Assembly: GCA_010015805.1 (NCBI GenBank)
Contig: ML978125.1
Span: 2,046,001 to 2,110,000, forward strand
Direction of reading: 5' to 3'
Source of the DNA: Rhizodiscina lignyota
Taxonomy: Eukaryota
DNA length: 64,000 nucleotides
The position numbers were made by a program, and so were the translations under genes. The notes under the pieces are model-generated. The model was not told where the DNA came from, did not search any database, and worked only from the letters and a program-made list of their open reading frames with translations. Shown here piece after piece: positions 26,730 through 63,655 of the stretch. Numbering within the stretch: position 1 is the stretch's first letter; every line of letters starts with the position of its first letter.

Positions 26730-27602
26730 TGCAAGTTGATCACGAATGATTTCCAAAGGGTAAGCGAGGGACAAACGAAAGAGAATATGCCATAGTTATA
26801 ATCCCACAATACCGGTAATGCGGCATGCAGTTGCAGAGAACTACCGGTGCCAAGATGAAGGAACGATGAAATCGAACACGGTGAGTGACTGATCAACAGG
26901 AACGTATGCGGGGAGAAACTGCAGCGCGCAAGGTACACTACCATGGTGTCGACCCGGGATCTCGGGGTTATGGTGCAGATTTGCAGCCTGCGAACGATTG
27001 ACACGAGATGCTTCGGCATGCCCTCCGTTACTTAGAGCGAAGTTCCAACAGCTTAATTGACAATTACGTCGTGCGCATGTCCGGCATCATACAGCCGCGC
27101 TCTCCATGAGGAGAAGCAGTTTAACCGTGAAAGTGAGGGATGGAGTGAGGTTGATATTGAGTTTCTTAGGCGGGAGGCGGACCACAAGCCTTGGCAGCCC
27201 TCCGCTCATGCATTCAGGCTGAATACGAGCGGCTGCAAACATTATTTTGGCGAGAAATACTGTAATAGATTGCTGCTCGACGTACTCATGGGCATTGCTC
27301 CTTGACTCGTGGTTGACGCTGGACAGGTAGTGCAAAGGAGGAAATCCAGGCTGACCGGCTATTCAAGAATAAGCAATTCAGCCAGCGACCATCGTTGTTA
27401 TTAGAAGACTCGGTTTGGCATTGGTTCCATTTCTGCAAATACAGCGTTGAAGCAGCCGCAGGCTTCATCAAATTAAGAACAGATGCAAGGCTCTTCTGAG
27501 TATTGTACCTAAGACGAAAGGCAGTGAGCCTATGCCCAAAGAGGACTTAGGTTATAATGTGGCTTAGCGTGGCTCAGCAATGAGGCTTGCCATGTCCAAG
27601 CA

Positions 27603-27750
27603 CGAGGGTGACAAAATAGTTGAGTCCTGTGGAGTTCGTTTATCTAAAACACGCAGCTTCAGCGTGTATAACTTATATTAACTATCGAGGATATACATCC
27701 TCGCAGTTCTATATATTACAGTTATGACTTAACTATTTTATCACCCACTT
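27603..27750. mobile_element. MITE-like 148-bp insert with 21-bp terminal inverted repeats, flanked by 18-bp direct repeats
   Basis: GGGTGACAAAATAGTTGAGTC (27606-27626) versus GACTTAACTATTTTATCACCC (27726-27746), 19/21 complementary; GCTTGCCATGTCCAAGCA at 27585-27602 and 27751-27768. Confidence 0.65.
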
Positions 27751-27772
27751 GCTTGCCATGTCCAAGCAGCTC

Positions 27773-55036: not shown

Positions 55037-57325
55037 TCAGTTCCTCAACTTATCTATAATGTTGGCGAAGAATCCTAGCTTCTTCCCCTCTGGCTCCTCA
55101 ATCTTAACTAGACGGTCTGAGAAGTCCATTTCATCGAGACGTACCCTACGCGCAGTTAGCGATAAGAACTTTGGGCTACTGTGAATCTCGTGTATGCGGG
55201 CTCACCATCGGGTCTTGTGATACCACTTGTAGCCCACGAAGAGGATGATGGCAGTTGGGATCATGATATAAGACGAGATAAAGAGCCTCCAGTCGAATGG
55301 ATTTTCGAAGGAGACGAAACCTTGAATGAACAGGATGAAGACGGTCAGGAAAAGGTTGAACCGGTAGATCCAGATGCTTCCGAAACTTTTGAAAGGATAG
55401 GTATCAGGATGGATCCCTTGTTTTTCCAACCCAGAGCGGACACGGAGGTGAGTGAAGATGATGCCAGCCCAGGCGAGGTAGGCAGCTGAGCCACCCACCG
55501 AGGTGATGTATGCGAAGACTTGACCAGCTGTGATTCCGAGGTTCATCAAGGCGAGGAAGCCCCAACAGCAGGAGGTCAGAATTGAGACGTAAGGAACTTT
55601 GAGATTATCAGCATGTCATTGGGGGACGGTCGTACGTCAAGGATACTCACCTCCTTTCTTTGAAGTGATTGCAAAGCATCTCGGAGCTCGACCGGTGAGC
55701 GCAAGCGAGTAGAGGGCTCGCGACTGAACATATATGCAACCATTGACTGCTGAGATGAATGCAACGACAATCAAGGCGTTGATAAAGTGTCCAGATGACT
55801 TCCATCCAGCTTGTGTGAATCCGATTGTGAATGGAGAAGATGCGACAGTCGATGAGGCATTGATTAGCAAAGGGGAGTCGGATGGACAGATAAGTCCTTG
55901 GAAGAATATCAGCCCCATGTAGACGAACAAGATTCGATATACGACAGTGTTGACACCCTATTAGAGTCAGCTCGACGCTCTCAGTTTGGGAGTTGATCAG
56001 TCATACCCTAGGGATTGAACGTCTTGGATCCTTAGTTTCACCAGCAGCCAGGGAAATGATTTCTGTTCCGACATAATATGCAGATGCAAGGACGAACACT
56101 TGGCCAAAACCGTTGATGCCATTGAGGATCGGCCCTATATCGTCAGCTGAGCTCTCTCAAAGGGAGGTACTGTGACTGCATATCTCAGCACCGACTTCAA
56201 CTGTGAAAGCAAGAGTGATGGAGGTATTGGCATTGAGTCTTGTCGCGAAGTTTTCGAGGTCGAAAATATCGGCTGCCCGCAGTTTTGATACCGTCGGGAG
56301 TTGGGTCAACTCCAAACCTGCCGGAATATACCCACGCACTCGTGCCGAGGGTGGAGCGGATACGAATCTCGCTGTGTCTTTCATAGCATGGCCGTAGCCG
56401 AACAGCCTCCATCCTCCTTGCCCTCAAAGTGAAGCCAGTGGGTAGATATGCAGTACATATGACCAACTTACCTGTTGGATGGCCCCAATACTTAAATCCA
56501 ATATATCCATTTCCAAATGCACCAGCGTCGACGAGGATAGAGATGAAGAAGCAGACGGCGAGTGAAATGATCTTAAACCATCCCATATAGTATTCGATTT
56601 CGCCGTACACGACAACACCCAGTGTCGTGATGATCATGAAGAACACCCAAAAGACGAGCACCCAGCCGTACATTGGCATTTTGGATTCGGGTACCCAAAA
56701 CTGGAGGATAAGAATAGCGCCATTCCATTCTGTCGGGAGGAAACATTTAGTGATCACAAACTAATTGATGATTCAGTGATCGGAAGCTTACCACTCCCGA
56801 GGAAGACACTCCACATCAGATAATAGAGCCATGCCATCGAGAAGCTGAAAGCAGGATCGACAAAGCGTGTAGCATGCTGCAATTATGTCAGTTTGGTGAC
56901 TGAGGCCGAAGTGGAGCATCTCACTTCAATGAAGCCCCCAGCTATCGGGAACATCGTTGTCACCTCTCCAATACTCTGCATGAGCGCCCAGATGATGAAG
57001 CCTGCTCGAATTTCAGTCCCATCATTGCCTTACAGCATCAGGATCAGAACCTACCAACGATGCCGAACCCCAGAAGAGCACCAAGTGGCCCAGATAGGTA
57101 CAATGCATATCCAAAGCCATAAAAACAGCTCGCTCCAATGACACTGGCGAGGGAAATGAGCGAGACATGTCTGCCCAAGAGGCCTCGTCTTAGACCGTCT
57201 TCGATGATGATGCCATCACCAATCTCAATTGGTCCAATTATCTCGGAAACCTGCTTCTCGTCTACAGAGGCGTCTTTGGACAGCTCGACTGATGCCGGCG
57301 ACTTGAAATCCTTGGCTTCGGCCAT
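55037..57325 (-). CDS. Amino acid permease (APC/YAT family)
   Basis: LRRGLLGRHVSLISLASVIG, SGPLG, GGFIE-HATRFVDPAFSF, YGEIEY, YVGTEII, SSPFTI, SRALY; multiple introns including a 337-nt intron at 56135-56471. Confidence 0.9.
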
Positions 57326-62646: not shown

Positions 62647-62699
62647 GACTTGAAATGTGTTATGTGAGTTGAGATGTGGTTTGAGAGCGGTTTGGAAGA

Positions 62700-62930
62700 C
62701 GGACGATGGATGCAGCGGTTGTGGATGAAGAGAAAGAGGAGAGGAAGCTCGCTGGCGATGGGCGAGCAGGCTTATATACTAGCGCGGCGGGCCCCTCATC
62801 ACCATTCGCCCGCTGTGTTTTGATGTTGCGCGTGTCGGCCGTGCACCACTTCCCGAAGCGGCATGGCGCGTTGATGAGCTCGCCCTCCATCAGGTATAAG
62901 ATCGTTCCCTCCCACCTTCGCCGACTTTCT
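62700..62930. promoter_or_regulatory. Divergent H2A/H2B promoter
   Basis: TATATAAG on the minus strand (~62772-62779) and TATAAG on the plus strand (~62895), each followed by a CT-rich leader. Confidence 0.65.
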
Positions 62931-63052
62931 CTTCTCCTTCATCATCCACAACCGCTGCATCTCACGTCGCGCATCCACACCAGCTTACACAACTCAGCCC
63001 ACTCACACAGTCTTCTAATCTAACCACTTCACAACTCTCTCAAATCGTCCAA

Positions 63053-63655
63053 ATGGCTCCAAAGGCACAGAAGACTCCCACGACGGCCGGCAAGGCCCCA
63101 GCAGGCAAGGCGCCTGCTGAGAAGAAGGAAGCCGGAAAGAAGACCGCAGCTGCTGCCGGTGGTGAGAAGAAGAAGCGCACCAAGACCAGAAAGGAGACCT
63201 ACTCCTCCTACATCTACAAGGGTGAGTTTCACGCGTCTTCGCCTTGTTTTGACCCTACCCGACGCGCCTTATCGCGTGTTTTTTTCACGGTCAAAACAAG
63301 CTGCACTCTCACTCAATGAGGTCTGGATCCAGCTGACGCGTTTTGTTTTCTAGTCCTCAAGCAGGTGCACCCCGACACTGGTATCTCCAACCGCGCAATG
63401 TCGATTCTCAACTCTTTTGTCAACGATATCTTCGAGCGCGTCGCCACTGAGGCCTCCAAGCTCGCTGCCTACAACAAGAAGTCGACCATCTCATCCAGGG
63501 AGATTCAGACCTCGTATGTTCATTGCCTCTCCATTAGCTATCGCATTATCTGACCCAATCACAGTGTCCGTCTGATCCTGCCTGGTGAACTCGCCAAGCA
63601 CGCCGTGTCTGAAGGCACAAAGGCCGTCACCAAGTACTCTTCTTCATCCAAGTAA
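63053..63655 (+). CDS. H2B: Histone H2B
   Basis: MAPKAQKTP...[42 protein letters not shown]...[30 protein letters not shown]; introns 63222-63353 and ~63514-63564. Confidence 0.98.

Follow-up and report, generated by a model that had tools for sequence, protein, structure and literature searches.

In the genome of the fungus Rhizodiscina lignyota, the fourth intron of an amino-acid permease gene is 337 nt long, and its extra length lies within an inverted repeat whose two arms are predicted to pair in the pre-mRNA. The best reading of these data, to which we give a probability of about 0.55, is that an inverted-repeat element inserted into an old, short intron and that its hairpin masks the added length. 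According to this scenario, an original intron of about 47-57 nt would have received, in the lineage of this Dothideomycete, some 280-288 bp of DNA bounded by inverted repeats, most likely an old and now solitary remnant of a MITE- or foldback-type transposon. The ends of the insert would pair in the pre-mRNA as a bulged stem of about 50 bp, by which the oversized intron would come to resemble a normal short one to a splicing machinery adapted to about 50-60 nt. The hairpin would thus have acted as a filter, at first on which insertions survived and afterwards on which arm mutations survived, and would not itself have been built by selection.

Inverted-repeat insertions in introns are in themselves nothing unusual. 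Filamentous fungi keep their introns within a narrow range of lengths, and the fate of extra DNA in them has rarely been documented case by case. What makes this locus useful is the combination of an ancestral short intron that can be inferred, a clearly bounded insert, and a stem geometry that matches the limits of yeast zipper stems; owing to these three properties it offers a ready-made construct for testing the RNA masking of intron length in an intron-definition system.

The permease gene and its oversized intron

The gene lies on the minus strand of the window, by which we mean the whole stretch of 64,000 nt that was analysed, and consists of 8 exons separated by 7 GT..AG introns. Its spliced model reproduces exactly the 541-aa protein P0011, assigned to the Pfam families PF00324 and PF13520, for which the source gives the name AAT-family amino-acid transporter and the organism R. 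lignyota, a Dothideomycete of the order Aulographales. In this model introns 1-7 measure 53, 48, 62, 337, 49, 54, and 60 nt, the fourth being about six times longer than its neighbours (337 nt vs. 48-62 nt in the six others). The closest named homologues of the permease exon belong to Leotiomycetes (Hyaloscypha 83%, Coleophoma 81%, Phialocephala 76%) and Chaetothyriales (72-76%), with no other Dothideomycetes among its 21 protein matches, a distribution due perhaps to the sampling of the databases or to an unusual history of the gene. The parts of the gene that concern us are the following.

55037..57325, minus strand: AAT-family amino-acid permease gene (PF00324/PF13520), whose spliced model equals P0011
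56472..56729, minus strand: exon 4, from the spliced model
56135..56471, minus strand: intron 4, 337 nt, phase 1 within a Gly codon, from the spliced model
56466..56471, minus strand: 5′ splice site GTAAGT, read from the sequence
56142..56147, minus strand: branch motif (G)CTGAC with the branch A at 56143, read from the sequence
56007..56134, minus strand: exon 5, from the spliced model

An earlier, sequence-only reading of this DNA had placed a 337-nt permease intron at 56135..56471, and the protein bears it out: P0011 is encoded letter for letter only when exactly 56471..56135 is removed, with exon 4 ending at 56472, exon 5 starting at 56134, and the Gly codon split between them. The resulting reading across the exon 4/exon 5 junction is matched by 16 of the 23 listed homologues, and because these run on through it with identical residues, an intact protein requires removal of the 337 nt. 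As the length of intron 4 is not divisible by three, a transcript that kept it would be frame-shifted. The branch motif, at intron positions 325-330, contains the sole CTRAY of the intron (at nt 326), and the branch A stands 8 nt before the last base of the intron, which ends in the acceptor AG; this spacing equals that of the close relative described below. The frame of exon 4 stays open for 90 codons into intron 4, as part of a 187-aa stop-to-stop ORF (56197-56760, minus strand), and a protein search with this ORF gave 5 matches among 41 candidates, none of which spans the intron-derived half. A nested, stwintron-like intron was considered and rejected: the insert starts with GT and ends near AGs, but, judged by eye, no CTRAY precedes those AGs.

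The same site was compared in relatives by two routes. A scan of metagenome contigs with exon 4 yielded 18 loci, among which L001 is the sole close relative, with 74% amino-acid identity over 84 residues of exon 4 and exon flanks that align with the window. Its intron interrupts the same base of the same Gly codon, is 47 nt long, and has CTGAC 8 nt before the AG. The loci L002-L016, 32-39% identical, were left out of the intron 4 comparison, and L017 and L018 (62-64% over short segments) were set aside as other permease paralogues with a different structure at the intron 4 site. The second route led through protein databases, in which ORFs from unannotated fungal contigs also occur: of 23 homologues with the junction motif, six are genomic ORFs that run into an intron here (P0001, P0002, P0004, P0021, P0024, and P0028). 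P0004, P0021, P0024, and P0028 pass 16-19 codons before they resume exon 5 in a shifted frame, a re-entry that makes their introns short, probably about 47-60 nt; P0001 ends after 15 codons and P0002 after 12. The L001 intron translates to the same residues as P0028, and the exact length of 47 nt comes from L001 alone. Two further genomic ORFs, P0003 and P0005, are intron-free at the site, and P0019, an annotated model, skips part of exon 5.

Judged from these sequences, the intron 4 site is old and normally short. In the window, the parts of intron 4 outside the repeat, 17 nt before it and 40 nt after it, come to 57 nt, which is the local norm. The short intron of the relatives at the same site, taken together with these 57 nt, makes insertion the most economical reading, the relatives with a short intron being distant (59-74% amino-acid identity over exon 4) and the insertion point therefore only approximate.

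The inverted repeat and its folding on the two strands

56406..56457, minus strand: 5′ arm of the inverted repeat on the pre-mRNA (intron nt 15/18 to 66), from the repeat search, arm alignment, and MFE structure
56225..56405, minus strand: 181-nt interior (loop), subject of folding against shuffles, Rfam, and ORF searches
56171..56224, minus strand: 3′ arm of the inverted repeat on the pre-mRNA (intron nt 248 to 297/301), from the repeat search, arm alignment, and MFE structure

The inverted repeat is beyond chance. Its inverted-alignment score, 5′ half against 3′ half, is 56, compared with a mean of 23.6 and a maximum of 51 in dinucleotide shuffles, none of 5000 reaching 56, and the sense strand of intron 4 folds at -127.0 kcal/mol against -99.05 +/- 5.55 in shuffles (z -5.04, 0 of 100 as good). 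An inverted-repeat search joins 56175-56199 to 56430-56454 (25 nt, 80% complementary) and 56200-56224 to 56406-56430 (25 nt, 76%), which describes imperfect arms of about 50 nt with an overall complementarity of about 78%; aligned at the DNA level, the arms have 43 Watson-Crick positions, 4 G:U on the sense strand, 0 A:C, 4 other mismatches, and 4 gap columns. In the sense MFE structure the stem is delimited by pairs 15/301 and 71/244 in intron numbering and holds 44 Watson-Crick and 6 G-U pairs. The sequence-only reading had proposed a long stem closing the intron, and its arms are where it had put them, the 11-bp perfect helix and the other helices it quoted all being found in the sense MFE structure.

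The hairpins that had been seen inside the loop are likewise present in the MFE structure, but the 181-nt interior as a whole folds no better than shuffles, on the sense strand (z -0.87, 40 of 200 shuffles as good) or the antisense strand (z -0.35, 69 of 200). An exhaustive search of 1.84 billion representatives with an 88-aa internal ORF returned 5 weak matches, the best at E = 1.6e-6 and none at or below 1e-10; the two looked at more closely, P0006 and P0009, are repetitive proteins. With a stem of about 50 bp, long and almost unbroken, in a transcribed intron, one may ask whether the hairpin RNA has a function of its own, as a substrate of Dicer (milRNA or siRNA precursor) or as another kind of non-coding RNA. 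Such a role is highly improbable in our judgement: the element is absent from the introns of relatives, its interior is not structured, and an Rfam search with 4227 models found no family, returning one sub-threshold match (ALIL, 12.5 bits where the gathering score is 50, E = 1.3).

The stem had also been called specific to the sense strand, a claim that goes too far. The sense stem is indeed the stronger, the arms alone giving -66.7 kcal/mol against -53.5 on the antisense strand, a difference of 13 kcal/mol, and the ensemble holding 46.2 expected arm-arm pairs against 41.6; this is because the transition mismatches (4-5) are all G-U on the sense strand. However, the antisense strand of intron 4, at -121.6 kcal/mol, also beats all 100 shuffles (z -3.81, 0 of 100 as good), as the sense strand does. 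Since both strands fold significantly, the structure is a property of the DNA-level repeat and does not belong to one strand, and the advantage of the sense strand is real but small.

With respect to the G-U pairs themselves, the original count of at least five is not confirmed as it was worded: the sense MFE structure places 5 in the arms and 6 in the stem as a whole, and the DNA-level arm alignment gives 4. The antisense stem has a single G-U pair, so that with each strand folded separately the figures are 6 on the sense and 1 on the antisense strand. Under a binomial test the G-U-only pattern has a probability of 0.0625 when counted as 4 of 4 and of 0.031 when counted as 5 of 5, and at p of about 0.03-0.06 the asymmetry is suggestive only, a hint that falls short of significance. 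Transcription-linked mutation bias was considered as a source of the G-U excess and set aside on a weak test, G+T on the sense strand of the element being 0.489, with no excess.

These figures bear on the main rival of our reading, in which the same insertion occurred, the hairpin has no effect on splicing, one 337-nt intron is simply tolerated, and the G-U pairs are due to chance or mutational bias. The marginal p-value of the G-U asymmetry speaks for it, as do the significant folding of the antisense strand and the state of the arms, whose complementarity of about 78%, 4 non-pairing mismatches, and 4 gap columns are what neutral decay would give. Against this, the six neighbouring introns, all of 48-62 nt, suggest a tight length optimum, the stem still amounts to -66.7 kcal/mol, and the sense strand is without the G+T excess that would point to transcription-linked mutation bias. 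On balance we regard a hairpin of no consequence as unlikely, though it deserves serious attention.

A second alternative keeps the function and discards the insertion: the stem would have evolved by selection as an RNA structure shortening the effective intron, with no transposon involved. This is close to what the sequence-only reading had favoured, and the 13 kcal/mol advantage of the sense stem, the restriction of transition mismatches to G-U, and the zipper-like geometry are all in its favour. It leaves unexplained, however, why an intron that measures 47 to about 60 nt in relatives became longer here; a 50-nt DNA-level repeat present on both strands resembles a single duplication or insertion and not pairing acquired stepwise; and the interior is unstructured. 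We therefore consider it improbable. Of the original proposal of selection for a structure that shortens the intron, the geometry fits, but selection is only hinted at, given that both strands fold and that the G-U pattern is of borderline probability.

Probable origin of the extra DNA

56170..56457, no strand assigned: presumed inserted inverted-repeat element at its largest extent (about 280-288 bp), from the extent of the repeat and its absence from the 47-nt L001 intron
56458..56459, no strand assigned: TA abutting the 5′ end of the element, possible target-site duplication (weak), from sequence reading
56168..56169, no strand assigned: TA one base past the 3′ end of the element, possible second copy of the duplication (weak), from sequence reading

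MITEs and foldback elements are class II non-autonomous transposons. The presumed insert in intron 4 has inverted ends of about 50 nt (76-80% complementary), is small (280-288 bp) and non-coding, and corresponds to an empty site in relatives, all of which are traits of MITEs. Removal of the element with one TA leaves 47 nt; the flanking TA match is a dinucleotide with a 1-nt offset, noticed post hoc, and hence weak. We infer that the extra DNA is transposon-derived.

Further copies of the element were sought and not found. Within the 64-kb window there is no second copy of the element, the next best matches having E >= 0.21, and in the whole public DNA run containing the locus (15,746 contigs, 34.2 Mb) the only sequence at least 80% alike is the contig of the locus itself. 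This contig shows no differences from the window, an agreement that does not amount to independent confirmation of the sequence, as the run may be the source of the window assembly. Translated copies of the element in protein space, sought with the 187-aa and 88-aa ORFs, yielded none that is real. The multiplicity of copies that characterises MITEs is thus not seen at a sensitivity of at least 80% likeness. In the portions of the literature consulted on MITEs in introns of Dothideomycetes, no account of such a case was found. A domesticated MITE had been offered by the sequence-only reading as an alternative to selected structure, and by the short intron of relatives and the 57 nt outside the repeat it is now favoured over a structure evolved for splicing, but with no second copy. 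We accordingly call the element MITE-like and assign it to no family, its membership of a transposon family being unproven.

Two other repeats in the window may be recorded here. A second MITE-like element of about 150 nt, at 27586-27768, has 30-nt inverted repeats that are 87% complementary (27597-27626 and 27726-27755) and is bracketed by a 17-nt direct repeat (27586-27602 and 27752-27768); it is unrelated in sequence to the intron 4 element, and its presence indicates that such elements occur in this genome. The other is a 54-nt inverted repeat, 76% complementary, at 62689-62742 and 62928-62981, with arms 185 nt apart, located in the intergenic space of two divergent histone genes, H2A on the minus strand and H2B on the plus strand with its ATG near 63054; it may represent symmetric promoter/5′-UTR architecture or another inserted palindrome.

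Introner-like elements have been described in Dothideomycetes, the class to which the host belongs, and intron 4 could be taken for a degenerate member of these, or for a symmetrical proliferating intron of the Hypoxylaceae type, which copies itself and has terminal inverted repeats. In the passages of PMC3609843 that characterise them, the introner-like elements of Dothideomycetes are long, stably folded introns with up to hundreds of near-identical copies that mark intron gains. Intron 4 is likewise longer and more stably folded than regular introns and comes from the same fungal class; it differs in standing at an ancestral intron site, with only its inner 280 nt extra and no copies found. 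Introners are expected where relatives have no intron, whereas here an intron is present at the site in L001 and in 6 of the 23 homologues and lacking in two genomic ORFs; the position is old and common to relatives, so that no intron was gained.

The likeness in form to the Hypoxylaceae introns is striking. As the relevant sections of PMC8469720 describe them, sister (stw)introns of this family have inverted repeats of 45-55 nt with about 73% identity, about 100 nt apart and with no clear flanking duplication, in which the repeats form the intron termini, the copies have proliferated, and a 10-nt palindrome is common to them; section 3.5 of the same paper mentions the Capnodiales. Intron 4 resembles them in having intronic inverted repeats of similar length and identity and no clear flanking duplication. 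Unlike theirs, its repeat is internal (14-17 nt inside the intron) and excludes the splice sites, it is solitary, with no other copy at least 80% alike in the 34.2-Mb run, and it is without that palindrome, the 8-nt core of which has 0 matches in the whole window. Descent from either kind of self-copying intron consequently seems very improbable to us.

Zipper-like geometry and known systems

If the extra DNA is an insertion, the question becomes how a 337-nt intron would pass for a short one. In Saccharomyces cerevisiae, zipper stems are known from RPS17B/RP51B and from other introns, and that of RPS17B aids splicing (PMC2536676). The portion of PMC12350175 on zipper stems sets the flanking distances at 10 nt or more and 20 nt or more, with a total linker of 42-85 nt, and states that zipper stems aid splicing in RPS17B and that not every zipper stem does so. 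The spacing given by the sequence-only reading for intron 4 is confirmed, the stem starting 14-17 nt after the first intron base and ending 23-27 nt before the branch motif, and both flanks lie within the yeast limits. The total linker is 44-48 nt with the stem taken as 18/297 and 37-41 nt, just below 42, when pairs 15-17/299-301 are counted, so that the positional rules of yeast would be satisfied at their lower edge, the total being borderline. Counted to the branch A, the linker totals 41-48 nt; in the four short introns of the gene with a clear CTRAY, the distance from the 5′ end to the branch A is 36, 39, 42, and 49 nt.

The sense MFE structure also pairs the 5′ splice site (nt 1-10; 56462-56471) with the branch region (nt 320-330; 56142-56152) through 9 pairs, 2 of them G-U. 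Much of this pairing is what the consensus sequences of fungal donors and branch sites, complementary in general, would give anyway, and if the helix were real it would mask both signals, hindering splicing rather than helping it.

From the predicted structures, then, the stem presumably forms in vivo and the hairpin probably keeps the splice signals close together. By doing so it may make the insertion tolerable, with mutations that preserve pairing, such as those leaving G-U, preferentially surviving. Selection on the RNA stem is only suggested. A stricter version of our preferred reading, in which the 280-nt insertion persisted solely through being looped out by its inverted ends, and a transposon-derived zipper stem has been under purifying selection, allowing since the insertion only those arm mutations that preserve sense pairing as G-U, is possible but doubtful. 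Were it true, what is known in budding yeast, the shortening of introns by structure, would extend to intron-definition splicing in Pezizomycotina, and the locus would show mobile DNA lengthening introns without cost.

Viewed beside known systems, the presumed insertion in intron 4 agrees with a MITE or foldback element within an intron in being shorter than 300 bp and non-coding, with terminal inverted repeats, absence from the site in relatives, and possibly a flanking TA; it departs from one in that no other family member was found, the complementarity of its arms is no higher than about 78%, and its target-site duplication is equivocal. Compared with the zipper stems of Saccharomyces cerevisiae, it belongs to a filamentous Dothideomycete whose introns measure about 50-60 nt, and its stem is of about 50 bp where a yeast zipper stem has 6 bp or more. 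Unlike the yeast stem, it seems to have been inherited ready-made from an inverted-repeat insertion. The yeast zipper stem is the closest functional analogue of the structure in intron 4, and a MITE residing in an intron is its closest structural one.
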